Assembly: GCA_051362555.1 (NCBI GenBank)
Contig: CM120646.1
Location: 868,001 to 932,000, forward strand
DNA from: Lingula anatina
Taxonomy: Eukaryota; Animalia; Brachiopoda
DNA: 64,000 nucleotides
Direction of reading: 5' to 3'
A model generated the notes under the pieces. It was not told where the DNA came from, made no database searches, and saw only the letters and a program-made list of their open reading frames with translations. A program made the position numbers and the translations under genes. Positions 1 through 11,717 of the stretch are shown here, one piece after another. How positions within the stretch are numbered: position 1 is the first letter of the stretch; each line of letters opens with the position of its first letter.

Positions 1-654
1 AGTTGTTCCTGAAGATGACTCTTACCAATCGAAGCATTGTTTGCTGTAGAATGTTTCTGTAGGAATCCTGGATGAGGTTGCCTCCTAGAAAAACCAACTG
101 GTTCTGGGCACCAACATGAAATGCTCCCCAAACAGAGACGTTACCATCCCCTGCTTGCACCCTAGGCAGTACACAATCATCGGTTTATGTCCCTCGTACA
201 CGTCGGTGGACACGAATTCGACGATCAACCCTAAAAAATCCATATCTGGCCTCATCACTGAAAACGACGTGATTCCAGTGTTTTGGCTGCAAACGCACGT
301 GGTCCCCAGCCCATTGCAGACGTCGCTGTATATGACCTCCTGTTAACAGTGGTTTCCCTACTGGCCTTTGTGCAAAATAACCGGCTTGCAGTAATCTCTT
401 GTTCACGAGGGACCTTGAAACGGGCGTTTGAATGACATTCTGCCTCTCTTTTCTGAGGACACTGTTTGTCTTTGTACGACCAGCACGGCGTCCTCTAGGG
501 AGAAGGCGATCCTGTCTTCTTGGTGTGATACGCGGACACCCTGGTCGAGGTATTGGAGTAGGTGCCCCTGTTGCAGCAATTCTTTGGAGGACTTCACAAA
601 CGGTTCCTTTATAAATGTTGAATTACCTGGCAATGGCTGTCCGTTTCTGGCCAT
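1..654 (-). pseudogene. Degenerate Tc1-family transposase remnant, truncated by the window start
   Basis: ORF 185..406 reads KPLLT..HIQRRLQWA....HWNHVVFSDEARY (Tc1 DNA-binding region plus first catalytic D). Reading through the in-frame TAA at 185-187 gives GDGNVSVWGAF...LVFLGGNL...YRNILQQ, the Tc1 GGxVMVWG/Y..IL block. The upstream part (403..654) is in another frame. Confidence 0.85.
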
Positions 655-1492: not shown

Positions 1493-1504
1493 CAGAACCC
1501 TTAC

Positions 1505-1882
1505 CTGGTCATAAAACTTGAGACTCTGTGGCACGCTGTGAAACCCAAAATACGGTCTGGCATGTTTATCCTTCTGACCATTATAAGGAGGGACGACCGG
1601 TCCCACCTTGGGGTTGGCCTTAGCATAGTCCCCGGCTATACTTCCACACGCTATATTGTCCCGTATGAACCCCTTCTCCATGGCCAGCATTTCCTCGGGT
1701 GGGGGGGTCGGGGGTGTGCGGTAGATTTTGTTGGCACGCGACTTCCTCGGCGAGCGAGGAGAGCGGGGCGCTGATGCCACGCTGTGTCGGGGACTGTCCC
1801 GTCTCGGGCTGCTTTGACGGGGGCTTTCAGCGGGCTTAGGACTCCCTGCCGTTGGACTTCCTGGGTTTTCCTCGTCTGCCAT
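1505..1882 (-). CDS. C17orf98: First coding exon of a C17orf98/SPMAP1 (DUF4542) family ciliary/sperm microtubule protein with a Ser-Pro-Arg-rich N-terminal extension
   Basis: MEKGFIRDNIA...DYAKANPKVGPVVPPYNGQKDKHARPYF....VPQSLKFYDQ matches the family pattern as I recall it (EKGFILDGVA...PK....IPPYNAQQDYHARSYF...VPPLL..TDQ). ATG at 1882, phase-0 donor CAG|GTAAGG at 1505/1504, 126 codons. Later exons lie outside the window. Confidence 0.88.
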
Positions 1883-3361: not shown

Positions 3362-3583
3362 AAGATCATACTTTTAGGGATCATTTCTATAGTATGTATC
3401 GCCGGGACGTCAGGTAAAACTGATACCGGACTGTACACTCTGATGACGAGGTGCAGCATCCCCTTCTGAGCGCGAAGCGGGCTCCAGATGCTACTTCCGG
3501 GTAGCTGGTCTGGGGTCATTGATGACCGTTCCGCTCTTCCATAAGTGGAGAGTTGGAGGAGGGGGATGCATTCAGAGGAGTGT
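3362..3583 (+). ncRNA. U3: U3 snoRNA gene, copy 1
   Basis: 5' AAGATCATACTTTTAGGGATCATTTCTATAG (boxes A'/A), box C' GATGACGA, box B GAGCGCGAAGC, box C TGATGA, box D variant CAGA, terminal stem ACACTC/GAGTGT. Length 222 nt; followed by a GTTT..AAAGAAAGA 3'-box-like sequence. Confidence 0.95.
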
Positions 3584-4184
3584 TTTTTTATAAAGAAAGA
3601 AAAAATAGAAGCCAAGGAACTTTCATTCTCTCTAACATCTCCTGTACGCTGGCAGCGTCCGTTCAGCGTTCTTTGTTCCCATGAAACTGGCAATTCTAGG
3701 TTGTGGAAAGAAGGTACAAGCATTGATACAAGTATAGTTGCAGAATGAATGCCAATGATCGGCCAGTTGTCGCCACGTTAAGATTTTTTTTACTCTCAAA
3801 CGGGGCCGTACTACGTCACGCTGAAAGAACGCCGTCAACTGTAAAGGGGCTTGAAAAACGAAGGTGAATTAGGAGGAGAGAGGGGGGGGGGTGGACGGCG
3901 GAGACACCAATATTTTTGACCACTGGTGACACCAACGACACCCAATGTCGTTAGTATAGACTGCAGAATATGGCAGAACTATTTCAACAATTGCAGTAAA
4001 CATTATTACTAATGTCAGTAAGCCATTAATTATCTGCTGGAAAGGGACTTCCTTCGAAGTATTAAAGATTGGTGATGAAAAGAAAACAAATTGAATCATG
4101 TACTGCCTGTTAAGATCACTTAGACCTTGGTCCGACCATTATATTTGATAGCGAGAGGCATCAGAAGAAATAAAACGGCAAAAG

Positions 4185-4466: not shown

Positions 4467-4688
4467 AAGATCATACTTTAAGGGATCATTTCTATAGTAG
4501 GTATCGCCGGGACGTCAGGTAAAACTGATACTGGACTGTACACTCTGATGACGAGGTGCAGCATCCCCTTCTGAGCGCGAAGCGGGCTCCAGGTGCTACT
4601 TCCGGGTAGCTGGCCTGGGGTCATTGATGACCGTTCCGCTCTTCCATAAGTGGAGAGTTGGAGGAGGGAGATGCATTCAGAGGAGAGT
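4467..4688 (+). ncRNA. U3: U3 snoRNA gene, copy 2
   Basis: Colinear with copy 1 (offset 1105 bp), about seven substitutions, all boxes retained. Followed by A26 at 4691-4716. Confidence 0.93.
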
Positions 4689-4719
<31 letters not shown>

Positions 4720-5087
4720 GAACAGAAAACACGAGCCAAATACTATCTTCTACCACGGCGACATCTTGATTTTTCACCAGATATTGATTTTCACCAGATG
4801 GCTAAATGTGGCCAATCTTCTAAATGCGAACCAAATGACCGTCTATTTGACCGTCTAATGATTTCAAGATGGCCGACAGCTGCAGTCACCTGTAAGTGCT
4901 CTGTGAAACTATGGCCTAAAGCACCGTAACCAAAAAGTTATTTCTTATCCAAAGGTGTAAGATAGACATTTAAAGATACAAAGAGAAGATTCCCTAAAAG
5001 TTTATAAGGAGAAATAGAGGAACAGGTAGGAAAAACTACACTTAACCTGTGGACCAGGGAAATCTCAAACAAACAAAGGAAGACAAG

Positions 5088-7253
5088 ATGGAGGACTATT
5101 ACAGCATCCTTGGTGTTCAACCTGAAGCAAGCACAGATGAGATAAGGGATGCGTTCACATCCAAAGTAAGCAAAATTACTGTACTTAATGATGGAAAACT
5201 ACAAGCAGACTCTGTTGCATATTTCACACTCATGAACCCAGTCACCAGACAGAAATATGATAAAGCAAGAGGATTGGATAATAGTGTCTCCTACACAACT
5301 GATCAGTATTTTGGGCCAAATGTGGAAGCTGTACAGCACAATAGTCAGTGTGCTATAGTCAGTATTAGCACAGTGAACCTAGTAAAAAGGTGGACTGAAG
5401 CCAGTAAACAATACCACAAACCAGACACTGAAAATGAAGTTAATGATGGCAGCGGGTACCAGCTGAAATTTCAGTATAAAGGCCCCAGTGGAATCAGTCT
5501 AGGTGCAATATCATTGACATTCTATCACACCGCCAAATCCAAGAAGATCCACGTACAGGGAGCTCCATACATACTATGGCTAGCATTTGATTATCCAAAG
5601 ATAGCCATGATTGTTTCATCCCCCAAAATGATACAGCAACCATCTATGTCAACATCCAAAGAAACTACAGAAGAAGAGGGAGATTGTGAATCGCCTATTC
5701 GCAGCAGTCAAACATCAGTGAAGAGATCAAGGAGAAACTCACAGACAGGATTCAGATCTAAACTGGGCACAAACTTTAAAGAAAGCCGTACGGAGAGAGA
5801 AGTGGGGAAGATGCAAGAGACCCTGCAAGCAGTGGAAGCAGGTTATGCTGAACTACTGTTTAAAACCACAGATATGAAAAGAAATGACACAAAAACAAAT
5901 GATCTTCTGGCCAGTCAAATAAATACTCTGAGTGAAAATGTGGGACACTTATCAGTTAAGTCAGCCAGTGACCACCAGGAATTGTTGAGACTCTTAACAC
6001 AGCTTTCAGACAAATTAACTAAGTTAACGGAAGAAGTGGATAATATGCGCCAACAAAAACAAGCCCCAAAACAACTGAACATTGCTGTTGATAAAAGCAC
6101 ACAGAGTGAGACCAGTGAACCAGCTGGAGACAAAGGCACTCAGTGTGAACTCACTGTGACTGCAAACAAAAGCACACAGTGTACTCAGTGCGAGGACAAA
6201 GGACTTCCCCTAATTACAGATAACAGGGAGATACAGCCCCAGGACTCTGCACCGCCCACACTTTCCACCATCCTAACACCATCAACAATTGCTATGGAGA
6301 TGTTACAACCCACCTCACAATTAACTTCTGAAGAAAAGAGAAGTGTTATTCATTCCACTCCAGTGGAGGAGCCCACGGAAAAAAGCACAAAGGAAAACAC
6401 AAAACATCCACACCCACCTTCCGCAAATGCTGATCATGAACCTGGACAATTGACACATGTGGAACCAGCACAAAACATACCTGTGCTACCTGATGAAAAA
6501 GAGCTGTCACAAGAGGGAGTACTGATAAACTCAAGCGAAAACACAGTTAGTCATGAGAATATTGTAATAGCAAGTTCCATTGGGAAAGGACTATCGGCCA
6601 ATAGACTCTTTCCACGCACAAGAAGTAAATGCTTTGTACTAAGTGGGAAGAAAATCACAGATGCAATGGAATTAATCAGAGAAAAAGATTTCGGCAAGCC
6701 TAAGACAATCACTGTAATCATGGGATCAAACAACATCAGTGAAGGGCAACACCCACAAAGTGTTGCTGACCAAACAATGACCCTTTTAGACAGCATTGAA
6801 CAAAAATACCCAGAAACTCAAATTATCCTTAGCAACATCTTGCCGAGATGGGGAAACCACAATTTCAACAGAGCTGCTGTACAAACCAACAGGCAAGTAC
6901 AGCAACTCTGCCGCTCACATACCAAGGTCCAATACATGGACAACATCAACCTCACCGGCAGAAGGGAACTGTTCAAATGGGATGGTGTCCACCTCACCCC
7001 ACGTGGGACCAGTACTCTAGCGCGCAACATAAAGGATGCCACCAGGCAACCAAATCCACTTCACACAGCACCAACAAGTAGCCACAGCCCCATTGCTACT
7101 AAAGCCCATCAGCAACAACACCATGGGGATCATCGCAAATGGAAACATTCACCTCATCAGTGGAACCCACCCAACATCAAGGGTAACTCTATTGAGATTG
7201 AACTAAAACTCCTACGTGAGTGTTTGAGCAAACTGGAAACTAAAATTCGCTAA
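5088..7253 (+). CDS. LINE ORF1p (721 aa): J-like domain, TBP-like motif domain, coiled coil, KxTQ repeats, SGNH/GDSL esterase
   Basis: First ATG at 5088 in AAGATGG context, with an in-frame TAA at 5043. DYYSILGV..AS.DEIR.AF...AY.TL.NP..RQKYD (J-fold). SGNH blocks VIASSI, SG, GSNN, DGVHL at about 6555-7040. Confidence 0.9.
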   Translation: MEDYYSILGVQPEASTDEIRDAFTSKVSKITVLNDGKLQADSVAYFTLMNPVTRQKYDKARGLDNSVSYTTDQYFGPNVEAVQHNSQCAIVSISTVNLVKRWTEASKQYHKPDTENEVNDGSGYQLKFQYKGPSGISLGAISLTFYHTAKSKKIHVQGAPYILWLAFDYPKIAMIVSSPKMIQQPSMSTSKETTEEEGDCESPIRSSQTSVKRSRRNSQTGFRSKLGTNFKESRTEREVGKMQETLQAVEAGYAELLFKTTDMKRNDTKTNDLLASQINTLSENVGHLSVKSASDHQELLRLLTQLSDKLTKLTEEVDNMRQQKQAPKQLNIAVDKSTQSETSEPAGDKGTQCELTVTANKSTQCTQCEDKGLPLITDNREIQPQDSAPPTLSTILTPSTIAMEMLQPTSQLTSEEKRSVIHSTPVEEPTEKSTKENTKHPHPPSANADHEPGQLTHVEPAQNIPVLPDEKELSQEGVLINSSENTVSHENIVIASSIGKGLSANRLFPRTRSKCFVLSGKKITDAMELIREKDFGKPKTITVIMGSNNISEGQHPQSVADQTMTLLDSIEQKYPETQIILSNILPRWGNHNFNRAAVQTNRQVQQLCRSHTKVQYMDNINLTGRRELFKWDGVHLTPRGTSTLARNIKDATRQPNPLHTAPTSSHSPIATKAHQQQHHGDHRKWKHSPHQWNPPNIKGNSIEIELKLLRECLSKLETKIR

Positions 7254-7372
7254 ATGACAAACAGAAAGTCTGCCTTGAAACACAACAATAGTAACACAGG
7301 ACTGTTTACACCAATTTAAAGCCAAGTAGGTGTCTTTAGTACAATAAGAGAAGCCAAAATGTAAGTACGCCT

Positions 7373-7373
<1 letters not shown>

Positions 7374-7419
<46 letters not shown>
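7374..7419 (+). repeat. T46 homopolymer in the inter-ORF spacer
   Basis: Direct reading. Preceded by GTAAGT (7361) and followed by ACAG. Confidence 0.95.
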
Positions 7420-7422
<3 letters not shown>

Positions 7423-7821
7423 GATAAAATCATGCTGCATGCTGTACATAATTTTCAGATGTGCATTATATAAACTGTATCACAGTACATGTTATCTACA
7501 ATTACTTAGTTTATAAATGAAGTTCAATCTTTTTCCATATTTTATCATGGCAATATGAATATAGTTAGTAAATGAAAAGCACTGTAACAGTGTAGTATGG
7601 AAGATACCATATCATATCAGTGATGGATAATTTACTGAGTGTGGAGAGGTACAAGCATGTATTTATCTATTTATTTAAAGGTTGATAACATGATTAAGAA
7701 GAGAAACTGCCAAAAGTTACATCTTGTTATAAAAAGTATAATAATTTTATGGTTATATATTGTATGTTAGGTGCTTAAGGTAATAGTTTCACTGTATGAA
7801 AGAATATAAGACAGTTTTGTC

Positions 7822-10800
7822 ATGGAAGACATGTTACGTATAGGTATGCGCAACATAAGAGGTCTAGCAAACAAGCTTAATGATGAAAACTTTATCTCCA
7901 CTGTGGAAAGTTATGATATTTTTGTATGTGTGGAAACTTTTTCAACTGAAAGGTCAAAAGTTGTCTTGCCTACTGGCTCACATGCCCACTTCCTTAAAGT
8001 TAGAAGAAAAAAGAAAGTTAGAGGTAGACCTTCAGGTGGAATTGTGATATACTATAAGAAAGAGTTCCGAGATGCAATCAAGATGTTTAATAGTAAGAGT
8101 GAGAACTTGTTGTGGATTAGACTGTCTGGTAAACATTTTGGACTGCAAAATGATATATTTCTCTGTGCAGTATACATAAAACCAAGCAATTCTCCATCTG
8201 ATGAAGCAACTTTTGATATACTAGAGGAAGAAATTGCACAGTTTAAAGCCCTGGGCTCAGTTTGCTTGTTAGGTGACTTTAATGCCAGAACAGGGATGTT
8301 GCAAGACTTTGTGAAAGATGATAATATGATTGGTCCTATGCCTGACAGCCGCATCAGTGACAGGAACTTAAAGCCTAGAAATAACCTAGACAGTGTGGTG
8401 AATCCCCAGGGAAGAACCCTACTAGAACTGTGCATTAGTAGTAACTTGTGTATTCTAAATGGTAGAATACGAGGCAATTCTTTAGGATATTTCACCTGTT
8501 ACAACACAAAGGGTTGCAGCACAGTAGATTACGCTATTGTTAGTGATGGGCTTTTGAGCAAAATCAAATATTTTACAGTACATCCAATAGATTACTTATC
8601 AGATCACTGCAGGTTAGATCTGACATTACAAATAACAGGTTTCAAACAGTCTGCACAAACACAGCAAGTAAAGGGATTCAGTGACCGCTACATTTGGGAG
8701 TCAAACTCACGTGAAAAGTTCATAGAGGCCCTAGAAAATGAGACAATGATGAATGACATTTGCTCCCTGCAACTTACCAATTTCCCTGCTACAAAAGAAG
8801 GTGTGCACAATGCATGCAATTCACTTACAAACATCTTGGAAAAGGCTGCTAAATCATCCTTGCGTATTAAGAAGCGAACTGAAAATAAGCCTAAAAAAAG
8901 ACCTAATAGAACGAGAAAACAACCGTGGTTTGACGGCACTTGTGCTGAAATACGACGAAATGTAAAGTACCTAGGCAAACTTCTTCATAATAACCCAAAA
9001 AATAACTTCATTTCTTGCACATACCATGAAGTTGCAAAAAAGTATAAACAAGTAATTAAACAAAAGAAACATAACCACAAAAATGCACTCTTAAATGACC
9101 TGTTAAACCTTGAAGAAAATAACCCCAAAGCATTTTGGCAAACCCTTAAAAAACTAAACCATGATAAAGAACAGCAAAACTTAATTAGCCCAGATACATG
9201 GTTTAGCCACTTCTACCATTTGTGTGGGATCCCTCCTGAAGGTGACCATGCCTTAGATAATGAAATTAAATCTTATGAAAGCCTACCAGGTGAAGCAGTA
9301 CTTGACAAACCTATTACAGTGAAAGAGGTTAAAAATGCCATTAAATATCTAAAAAATGGGAAATCACCTGGGGAAGACAAGGTGAGAAATGAAATGTTGA
9401 AAGCTGGAGCACAGTATTTTGCAGTTGTGCTCACAAAACTATTTAACATGGTGCTAAATACATCTGAAATCCCTGAATCTTGGAACCTAGGAATTATAAT
9501 CCCGCTTTTTAAATCAGGAGAACATATGAACCCTGAAAACTATAGAGGCCTCTGCATAACTAGTTGCTTAGGGAAATTATTTAATTCAGTTTTAGCACAC
9601 AGGCTCATCCAACATATTAACAATGAAAACAAATTAAGTGAAGAACAAGCAGGCTTCAGGCCAGGTTATAGAACAACAGATCATATCTTTACTTTGAAAT
9701 CACTAGTCAACAGGTATCTCAATCAAAACAAAAAGCTGTATGCCTGTTTCATTGACATGAGAAAAGCCTTTGATTCAGTATGGCACAAGGGACTATTACT
9801 GAAATTACTTAAACTCGGGATTAGGGGGAAATTCTACCGTGTCATAAAAAGCATGTATAGTAACACCAGATTAGGCATCTCGGTAGGTTTAGGTTACACT
9901 ACCCCATTTCTATCAAGATTAGGAATCCGCCAAGGAGATAACCTTAGTCCCACTCTCTTTAATTTATACATGGATGACCTCAAGGAGGCTTTCCTTTCTT
10001 GCAACCAGCCCGGTGCAATTAATGGACTGAATCACATCTTGTATGCTGACGACCTTGTCCTAATATCGGCATCCAGAGATGGTCTACAAAATAAACTAAC
10101 GACACTGCAAGCTTACTGTAAAAAGTGGAAACTAAACATAAATGAAAAAAAGTCCAAGATCATGATATTTAATAAAAAAGGAAAATTAGACTCTGCAACA
10201 TCATTTACAATAAATAATATAGCCATTGAATCAGTAAAAGAGTACAATTATCTGGGTTTAACCTTTACAAATACAGGTTCAATGAAAAAAGCAATTGAAA
10301 ATTTAAAGAAAAAGGCTCTAAAAGCAACTTTTGCTCTTAAAACAGCCCTGTCCTCAAACAAGATAACATCTCCCACACTCAACTTAAAACTTTTTGACAA
10401 AACCATCAAGCCCATCTTACTATATGGATGTGAAGTTTGGTCTGAAGAAATATTCAAGGAAAAACAAATGTCTCTTACAAAACTAAATAAATTTCCTTTT
10501 GAACAACTACATCTAAAAATGTGCAAATGGGCACTAGGTGTACGAAAAAATGCTATGAACAATGCCTGTAGAGCTGAATTTGGAAGATTTCCACTCTATT
10601 CTGATATTGCAAAACAGACACAGAGATACAGCGCCAGACTCAAAGAGCTACCTTCCAGCAGATTGGTCAAAAACATTTATGAACAGGAGCAAAAAGAAAA
10701 AGGACCCTGTTGGTCTGAATCAATAAGAACATTTATACAGTGTTGGGGTCTGGGTCATAAAACTGATACACAAACACTAGATAACTTTGAAAACCTAAGA

Positions 10801-11250
10801 GATGCTATCAACAATAAAATTGAGGAACTATTTTGGAAAGACCTGGAAAGTGATAACTACAGTAAACTCAGGACATACAGACTACTTAAAAAAACTTACA
10901 CCCCTGAAAAATATCTGTCAATGAAAGTCACCCCATCAGAAATGAAGACTATTGCAAAAATGCGGATTAGTGACCACGAATTAGAAATTGAACGTGGCCG
11001 CTATACATCCCCTAAAACCCCTACTGAAAATCGCAAGTGCCCCCACTGTAATGAAATTGAAACGGAGATCCACTTTTTACTGAAATGTGAAGAACATAGT
11101 GTCAGAAGAATTAGATTAATGATACCTCCTGAGCAGAAAACAGATCATGAAAAAATTCAGTGGCTGCTCAGTCCAAAAAGTGAATTGTGTTTGAGAACAT
11201 TATATCTATATATAACTGAAAGTTTGAAAAAACGACACACCCACCAATAG
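7822..11250 (+). CDS. LINE ORF2p (1142 aa): APE-like endonuclease, reverse transcriptase, C-terminal CCHC-type motif
   Basis: APE motifs NIRGL, VET, GGIVIY, LGDFNAR, TVDY, SDH. RT motifs KSPGED, NYRG, QAGFR, KAFDSV, GIRQGDNLSP, YADD, YLG. C-terminus ISDHELEIERGRY...CPHC....E.HFLLKC. No stops or frameshifts. Confidence 0.97.
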   Translation: MEDMLRIGMRNIRGLANKLNDENFISTVESYDIFVCVETFSTERSKVVLPTGSHAHFLKVRRKKKVRGRPSGGIVIYYKKEFRDAIKMFNSKSENLLWIRLSGKHFGLQNDIFLCAVYIKPSNSPSDEATFDILEEEIAQFKALGSVCLLGDFNARTGMLQDFVKDDNMIGPMPDSRISDRNLKPRNNLDSVVNPQGRTLLELCISSNLCILNGRIRGNSLGYFTCYNTKGCSTVDYAIVSDGLLSKIKYFTVHPIDYLSDHCRLDLTLQITGFKQSAQTQQVKGFSDRYIWESNSREKFIEALENETMMNDICSLQLTNFPATKEGVHNACNSLTNILEKAAKSSLRIKKRTENKPKKRPNRTRKQPWFDGTCAEIRRNVKYLGKLLHNNPKNNFISCTYHEVAKKYKQVIKQKKHNHKNALLNDLLNLEENNPKAFWQTLKKLNHDKEQQNLISPDTWFSHFYHLCGIPPEGDHALDNEIKSYESLPGEAVLDKPITVKEVKNAIKYLKNGKSPGEDKVRNEMLKAGAQYFAVVLTKLFNMVLNTSEIPESWNLGIIIPLFKSGEHMNPENYRGLCITSCLGKLFNSVLAHRLIQHINNENKLSEEQAGFRPGYRTTDHIFTLKSLVNRYLNQNKKLYACFIDMRKAFDSVWHKGLLLKLLKLGIRGKFYRVIKSMYSNTRLGISVGLGYTTPFLSRLGIRQGDNLSPTLFNLYMDDLKEAFLSCNQPGAINGLNHILYADDLVLISASRDGLQNKLTTLQAYCKKWKLNINEKKSKIMIFNKKGKLDSATSFTINNIAIESVKEYNYLGLTFTNTGSMKKAIENLKKKALKATFALKTALSSNKITSPTLNLKLFDKTIKPILLYGCEVWSEEIFKEKQMSLTKLNKFPFEQLHLKMCKWALGVRKNAMNNACRAEFGRFPLYSDIAKQTQRYSARLKELPSSRLVKNIYEQEQKEKGPCWSESIRTFIQCWGLGHKTDTQTLDNFENLRDAINNKIEELFWKDLESDNYSKLRTYRLLKKTYTPEKYLSMKVTPSEMKTIAKMRISDHELEIERGRYTSPKTPTENRKCPHCNEIETEIHFLLKCEEHSVRRIRLMIPPEQKTDHEKIQWLLSPKSELCLRTLYLYITESLKKRHTHQ

Positions 11251-11497
11251 CAATAGTCGTTTTATTCTGTGCTGCTTCCCAGTAATCATTCAATAAGTAT
11301 TGTATAGCTTTGTATAATTGTTGCTAAGTTGTTATGACTAGTGTAGAGAGCCTGTAAAATGTAATATGTATGCATTTTAGTGCTCAATAAAGATTATATA
11401 TATTTATTTTAAGACATATATGTGAATATCTTGTGAAAAAACAATCTGTGACCCTAGTAGAAGGTATTAAACCAAATATTATGTAGGCAGGCCACAG

Positions 11498-11717
11498 ATG
11501 AATTATTGTGAGGGTAAGGGGGTCAACAACAGGTTCTACCACTAGTGACACCTAGCGACGTCACTGTAAACTGAAGAATACGTCAGATCTATATCAACAC
11601 TTTTAAAACCGAAACACTATATTATTAAAATGAAAAATCCATTAATTATCAGCTTGAATATGGTTTCGTTTGAAGTCTTAAAGGTTAGCAATACGGAAGG
11701 AAAACAAAAATGAATTT
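11498..11717 (+). repeat. Diverged paralog of the U3 spacer segment 3864-4098 (rest of U3 repeat unit 2)
   Basis: Colinear blocks: ACCACT(G/A)GTGACACC; ACTG(C/A)AGAATA..(G/T)CAGA(A/T)CTAT(T/A)TCAACA; CCATTAATTATC(T/A)GCT; GAAGT(A/C)TTAAAG; GAAAACAAA..GAAT. Confidence 0.8.

Follow-up and report, generated by a model that had tools for sequence, protein, structure and literature searches.

In ZfL2-1, which represents the esterase-type class of long interspersed element (LINE) ORF1 proteins (ORF1p), a coiled coil dimerizes the protein and an SGNH esterase binds acidic liposomes; a known RNA-binding domain was reported for none of the esterase-bearing members of the class (PMC3905857; this and the other papers are cited for the parts of them covered here). 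We analyzed a full-length LINE of Lingula anatina that lies in a 64,000-nucleotide window, the whole stretch of DNA considered here (assembly GCA_051362555.1, contig CM120646.1, positions 868,001 to 932,000 of the forward strand), and whose ORF1 carries a J-fold domain and a TBP-like domain ahead of the coiled coil and the esterase. J domains stimulate Hsp70 through an HPD tripeptide and helix II. Comparison with its relatives places this ORF1p in an old, likely RTEX-like family of esterase-type ORF1 proteins with an N-terminal J domain; that the J domain is a captured co-chaperone module that recruits Hsp70 to the RNA-protein particle we consider about as likely as not. The strongest point is the HPD-bearing relatives; the Lingula copy itself is degenerate, and its array of LC8-type motifs is private to it.

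ORF1 stands first in the element, ahead of an ORF2 with an APE endonuclease and a reverse transcriptase, as in the esterase-type class, and the two are the only ATG-initiated open reading frames of at least 150 aa in the window. The modules of ORF1 follow one another in the order J-fold, TBP-like alpha/beta domain, coiled coil, LC8-type motifs and SGNH esterase, at these window positions:

5088..7253, + strand, ORF1, 721 aa, called as an ATG-initiated open reading frame
5091..5267, + strand, J-fold domain, aa 2-60, no HPD, loop between helices II and III shortened (Pfam, fold match, alignment with relatives)
5319..5624, + strand, TBP-like or helix-grip alpha-beta domain, aa 78-179 (predicted local distance difference test, pLDDT, over 90; fold matches; conserved G..T.Y..T...QG...LW pattern)
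5718..5765, + strand, arginine-rich patch, aa 211-226, candidate RNA-binding motif
5781..6077, + strand, predicted coiled coil, aa about 232-330 (Pfam and heptad heuristic)
6087..6185, + strand, three K-x-T-Q repeats, aa 334-366, two of them good LC8-type motifs
6546..7049, + strand, SGNH esterase, aa 487-654, all catalytic residues present, net charge +10

An earlier note on this DNA, made from the letters alone, had described an intact 721-aa ORF1 in an intact element, with five separable modules and no RRM, zinc knuckle or PHD. The frame is indeed uninterrupted, the element has target-site duplications and empty-site contigs, and Pfam (E up to 1) plus a pattern search found no RRM, zinc knuckle or PHD in ORF1. 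As to the modules, the J-fold, the esterase and, as a prediction, the coiled coil were recovered; the "TBP-like motif" is a whole 100-residue domain, and the LC8 array comprises two good motifs and a weak third. The esterase gave a Pfam Lipase_GDSL match over the cut-off at residues 521-647, S497, G520, N548, D632 and H635 are all in place, and the top PDB match was 4c1b, the ZfL2-1 ORF1 esterase. The transposon-specific S228 of ZfL2-1 is kept (S582) and its H191 is replaced by Ile544, a His that is missing in many relatives too. By the features tested, this ORF1p is a member of the esterase-type (type IV) class.

The N-terminus (residues 1-190) was modeled from a 37-row alignment with a pLDDT of 89 and a predicted template modeling score (pTM) of 0.80 for the two domains; a single-sequence model reached a pLDDT of just 35. 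Residues 1-64 of the model match J domains with Z up to 10.3 (root-mean-square deviation, rmsd, 1.8; 62 residues aligned), and Pfam DnaJ matches residues 3-58 (E 8e-6, 26.3 bits, slightly below the cut-off of 27.8). Foldseek searches returned lists dominated by J proteins, with zero PDB matches at E up to 0.001, and ESM Atlas gave nothing usable for residues 1-185.

Relatives were taken as the best 150 of 662 HMMER matches (E up to 0.001) plus 3 from a domain profile. Forty-six of these 153 proteins have the TBP-like domain, and in 25 of the 153 a J domain directly precedes it; 19 are full length, with J, TBP-like domain and esterase, and overall identity to relatives is 17-35%. Pfam DnaJ matched 22 of 22 relatives scanned, 21 of them above the cut-off. 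The HPD is intact in 17 of the 25 J-bearing relatives, reads HPE in one and HPL in another, and is absent from six, of which the named ones come from Branchiostoma belcheri and B. lanceolatum. In all 13 pairs compared, the J domain is more conserved (31-61% identity) than the middle region (19-45%) and close to the esterase (21-65%), HPD-less pairs included. The coupling of the ribonucleoprotein particle to host chaperones proposed in the earlier note thus has more in its favor in the family, where the HPD is mostly present, than in the Lingula copy.

That these relatives are LINE proteins is shown directly for P0174, which runs in frame from J and TBP-like domains into an APE domain akin to that of this ORF2 (E 4e-24), and otherwise indicated by dispersed cluster members (9 for P0104, 8 for P0173), which lie on separate megabase contigs and of which many are truncated. 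P0173 and P0174, both HPD-bearing, are near-copies and represent one family. Databases file the relatives as host esterases, hypothetical proteins or CbpA, a misfiling that inflates J-protein counts in amphioxus and metagenomes. P0014 combines a J domain (HPE) and a TBP-like domain with an esterase and, at its C-terminus, CCHC zinc knuckles; the pairing of esterase with a classical RNA-binding knuckle is called absent in PMC3905857. P0005 (679 aa) lacks the TBP-like domain and has six J domains in tandem, all HPD-bearing.

A word-based search for homologues of residues 1-180 gave no match, as would be expected of a one-off chimera joining a host DnaJ exon to a LINE, or of an assembly artifact. 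We give either next to no credence. The joined J and TBP-like domains recur in 25 relatives with the same layout, for which reason the one-off chimera that the earlier note had held in reserve is dismissed; moreover, all four public DNA runs cover ORF1, an independent contig is identical at 5074-5304, and the reading frame is unbroken. A full-length profile search was swamped by ordinary DnaJ proteins, a metagenome scan gave 80 loci with every match confined to the J region and none to the rest of ORF1, and viral contigs gave no match.

Residues 82-180 of the model matched Flpp3 (Z 7.5), the KA1 domain of SAD-B (7.3), the RNase H3 N-domain (3vn5; Z 7.0, rmsd 2.4, 69 aligned) and BamC (6.9), all level with one another, and lower down the AP-2 appendage (6.1), RnlA (5.8), and METTL16 and TUT1 (5.7-5.8), with an overall range of 5.6-7.5. 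A PDB sequence search with the domain found nothing real. Weak Pfam matches (E 0.01-0.03) pointed to DUF3378 (the RNase H3 N-domain) and RnlA_toxin, each in 3 of 17 members, the best DUF3378 match among the 17 having E 0.027 and this protein having none. It is quite possible, if short of an even chance, that the domain is a KA1-type module binding acidic lipids or proteins and that RNA binding is left to the arginine patch alone (aa 211-226, the sole 15-residue basic patch detected in ORF1). KA1, BamC and the AP-2 appendage rank level with RNase H3 and the domain is often acidic; yet an acidic domain suits lipid binding no better, and the DUF3378 and RnlA matches are the sole hints at the sequence level.

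The J domain might instead be a structural partner of the TBP-like domain, the two forming one folding or RNA-binding unit in which Hsp70 is uninvolved and the HPD a relic. The invariable adjacency of the two domains (25 of 25), the pTM of the two-domain model and the continued conservation of HPD-less J domains all suit such a unit. We nevertheless hold it unlikely, given that 17 of 25 proteins at 17-35% identity would scarcely have retained a surface-loop tripeptide unchanged unless selection acted on it, and that the TBP-like domain occurs without J in 19 relatives.

For the HPD-less J domains, a further reading is that of a regulator or decoy, which would bind a true J protein or Hsp70 and damp it, for example keeping chaperones from dissolving the particle. 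Pam16/Tim16, a J-like protein, is the model. Pairs within the HPD-less amphioxus group share 48-61% identity in the J domain vs 23-45% in the middle region, consistent with selection on an HPD-less J, and the loop that would hold the HPD is remodeled in different ways, by a deletion in the Lingula copy and by an extended helix in the amphioxus group. However, Tim14-Tim16 is a weak fold match to the J model (Z 5.7), and independent loss of the HPD is not demonstrated: in a tree of the TBP-like domain plus esterase (35 rows, weak backbone), a single clade of HPD-less J domains was not rejected (approximately unbiased test, p 0.38). We therefore regard this reading, too, as improbable. With P0084 omitted, the same tree rejected the grouping of all J-bearing rows into one clade (p 0.019), and the two tests do not fix the number of J gains and losses. 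A tree of J domains, built on 66 columns from 24 family rows and 47 cellular, mostly bacterial, rows, pointed to no donor.

Behind the N-terminal domains, a weak Pfam coiled-coil match spans residues 232-325, and a heptad heuristic (not COILS) gives 290-330. The K-x-T-Q array begins 4 residues after the predicted coil, within a low-complexity linker. LC8 binds motifs next to coiled coils, stabilizing dimers, and we scored the repeats by the published consensus [DS]-K-x-[TVI]-Q-[TV]-[DE], without proline (PMC3078936). Two of the three fit 5 of 6 consensus positions (shuffle p 0.001) and the third fits 3 of 6; one of the two better motifs has the preferred Val at -5. The strict KxTQT class has 0 matches in ORF1, the +1 residue being S or C. 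A 23-nt DNA repeat with spacings of 39 and 36 underlies the motifs, which arose through tandem duplication. A perfect 6/6 LC8 consensus motif was seen in the HPD-bearing relative P0009 (residues 235-242), upstream of its coiled coil.

Several observations weigh against an ORF1p family that brings Hsp70 to its RNA. Alignment with relatives places no HPD between helices II and III of the Lingula copy, and its helix II has a net charge of 0, compared with 0 to +4 in HPD-bearing rows (18 aligned); for these two reasons classical co-chaperone activity is unlikely in this copy. Counting it, 7 of 26 J-bearing proteins are without any HP motif, and 19 relatives have the TBP-like domain and esterase with no detectable J domain (some may be truncated gene calls); J and HPD are, judging from the proteins compared, dispensable in many relatives. 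Direct linkage to an ORF2 is available for two proteins only, this one and P0174. For aa 78-179 the model supports the TBP-like/helix-grip fold group and not a function, the matches being tied and middling (Z under 8), and the net charge of the domain runs from -11 to +10 (43 domains), often acidic and not consistently basic. Enrichment of LC8 motifs behind the coil is not seen in relatives (6 of 1402 vs 19 of 7825 positions, p 0.17), and 20 relatives hold 16 weak matches vs 9.4 expected (p 0.03), with 1 alone at 5/6 or above. Since the relatives are barely above chance and show no enrichment behind the coil, the array is, on this comparison, a feature of the lineage of this copy and not of the family. 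The purifying selection among copies of the LINE, which speaks for the model (synonymous: ORF1 7 of 12, with 6 of 7 up to codon 650; ORF2 20 of 34; expected 0.26), is read from the best-supported subset of the variants, with 1018 and 175 further rows outside it. Finally, the ORF1 RNA signal is low and comes from one of four RNA runs, about 6% of that run having been examined.

If the J domain is nonetheless a captured co-chaperone module, as we prefer to read it, the parts of ORF1p could work as follows. The coiled coil would multimerize the protein, the basic esterase would target it to acidic membranes as in ZfL2-1, and the TBP-like domain and arginine patch would together hold the element RNA. 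In HPD-bearing members the J domain would call Hsp70 in cis, assembling the multimer or stripping ORF1p from the RNA before reverse transcription. In the Lingula copy the HPD-less J could dock partners without switching Hsp70 on, serving as a docking or decoy surface, and in this lineage LC8 binding just after the coiled coil would stabilize the dimer. The membrane and lipid coupling suggested in the earlier note is the known esterase proposal of PMC3905857 and not new. A broader generalization, in which an old lineage of RTEX-like LINEs encodes its own Hsp70 co-chaperone for assembly or uncoating, after the manner of some viruses, with HPD-less decoys in some lineages, and the TBP-like domain is the folded RNA-binding module presumed missing from esterase-type ORF1 proteins, is offered tentatively, and we are inclined to doubt it as a whole. 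How ORF1p is loaded onto LINE RNA and removed from it is poorly understood, and this family makes both approachable through two small folded domains, with natural HPD-positive and HPD-negative versions of J and with the TBP-like domain also present in J-less members. If the J domain works, the element would be a retrotransposon that brings along its own means of engaging the host chaperone machinery.

The element that encodes ORF1 and its remaining parts are placed in the window as follows:

4849..11400, + strand, full-length LINE (RTEX-like), lodged in a copy of a dispersed repeat (empty-site contigs, target-site duplication)
4844..4848, + strand, left target-site duplication TATTT
11401..11405, + strand, right target-site duplication TATTT
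7254..7821, + strand, spacer of 568 nt, with T46 (7374-7419) between GTAAGT and ACAG
7822..11250, + strand, ORF2, 1142 aa, with APE endonuclease, reverse transcriptase (YADD) and C-terminal Cys/His motif
11251..11400, + strand, 3' untranslated region (AATAAA at 11386; tail short and AT-rich)

In three of the four public DNA runs, contigs pass directly from 4848 to 11417-11426 and skip the element, which is the empty form of the dispersed repeat. The target-site duplication flanking the LINE is 5 bp. Read cover over the LINE climbs steeply toward the 3' end, matching the expectation for 5'-truncated copies, and contigs from one independent run are 98-100% identical across most of its length. 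On the empty-site contigs, 3' cover, TATTT repeats and near-identical contigs, the LINE at 4849-11400 is intact, multi-copy and young. Its initial 9 bases duplicate flank sequence, so that the real 5' end may be at about 4858. The tail here is a short TA run, and ATT/TAT-rich tails continue other copies (loose contig and read ends); for 3' ends made of short tandem repeats, we found only algal RTEX tails in print. The dispersed repeat itself (about 4820-4848 and 11401-11466, split by the LINE) is abundant, and its uninterrupted form occurs in many contigs and RNA reads.

ORF2 matches the Pfam families RVT_1 (E 1e-41) and Exo_endo_phos_2, and its reverse transcriptase found only R2 and L1 in PDB, with similar scores. 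Run X15, the one with ORF1 signal, has sense cover at 4842-7911 (depth 1.4-5.4) and nearly no ORF2 reads, its strandedness being judged from the + strand U3 gene, which has the same read orientation; RNA of ORF1 of this LINE family is thus present in one sample. The remaining three RNA runs hold mostly the 3' end of the LINE, in both orientations. ORF1-only transcripts that end near the T run are possible. The spacer holds 17 ATGs and neither AATAAA nor ATTAAA. Its GTAAGT, T46 and ACAG (7361-7423, + strand) resemble a splice donor, a pure pyrimidine tract and an acceptor, and an ORF2 message could use this predicted acceptor together with a donor at 4892 or 4957.

Upstream of the LINE in the window is a further pair of genes:

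3362..3581 and 4467..4686, + strand, two tandem U3 small nucleolar RNA genes

The sequence upstream of the U3 genes is duplicated (92.5% over 308 nt), and the second gene, 160 nt ahead of the LINE, has a run of A26 (4691-4716) behind it. Targeting of U3 genes by the LINE was considered and rejected, because the element begins 160 nt beyond the gene and within the dispersed repeat. Divergent from the U3 genes, a host SPMAP1-like gene (Pfam E 2e-14) probably has its first coding exon at 1496-1882 (- strand). A Tc1/mariner transposase fragment (HTH_Tnp_Tc3_2) occupies 188-622 (- strand), and another short repeat is present in two copies, 69% identical, at 3937-4070 and 11547-11686.

The element is likely RTEX, by domain spacing and nearest named proteins. 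In the Branchiostoma floridae and Saccoglossus elements RTEX-n_BF and RTEX-1_SK, the coiled coil starts at 266-356 and the esterase at 469-550 (PMC3905857 Table S1), compared with a coil at about 232-330 and an esterase from 487 here; the amphioxus RTEX elements have 270-350 unannotated residues ahead of the coiled coil (same table), and the closest named relatives of this ORF1p are Branchiostoma proteins. The shorter spacing of RTEX_NV fits J-less relatives such as P0066. Compared by domain spacing only, the architecture is very likely that of the Repbase RTEX_BF elements; the Repbase boundary letters gave one chance-level match to the family proteins. The main text of PMC3905857 makes no mention of DnaJ or TBP and its covered parts annotate nothing upstream of the coiled coil, the covered parts of the Jockey-group ORF1 survey PMC4120745 make no mention of DnaJ, and those of PMC5408684, PMC11203168, PMC9004415, PMC5753468 and PMC3747384 add nothing on J domains. 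Our literature search, with Repbase Reports, Dfam and some RTEX/ORF1 papers outside its reach, turned up no ORF1p bearing either a J or a TBP-like domain. An ORF1p with both is likely undescribed in print, and the J domain may already be noted in a database entry, a strong DnaJ match being easily spotted.

Set against known systems, the Lingula protein is a variant of the esterase-type ORF1p class, and not the undescribed system that the earlier note had seen in it. Like the ORF1p of ZfL2-1 and CR1-1_DR, it has a coiled coil ahead of an SGNH esterase with S-G-N-D-H intact, no RRM, a basic esterase and an arginine-rich patch (PMC3905857, PMC4120745). Unlike the ZfL2-1 ORF1p, which has about 300 aa and begins with the coiled coil, it has 180 aa of folded N-terminal domains added, and 10 of the 19 full-length relatives have a PHD-like finger. 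The TBP-like domain shares its alpha/beta fold group with the N-domains of RNase H3 and RnlA and with the KA1 domains of SAD-B, Chk1, METTL16 and TUT1 (model-based Z 5.6-7.3), from which it differs in having identity under 13% and no PDB sequence match; unlike TBP, it is a single copy and not a two-repeat saddle. With J-domain proteins (Hsp40/DnaJ) the family shares the four-helix J fold and, in 17 of 25 relatives, the HPD, whereas the Lingula copy is without HPD, has no G/F or client-binding domain, and carries its J domain as part of an RNA-coating protein of a retrotransposon. A mobile element with a J domain of its own has a parallel in viral J domains, for example that of polyomavirus T antigen.

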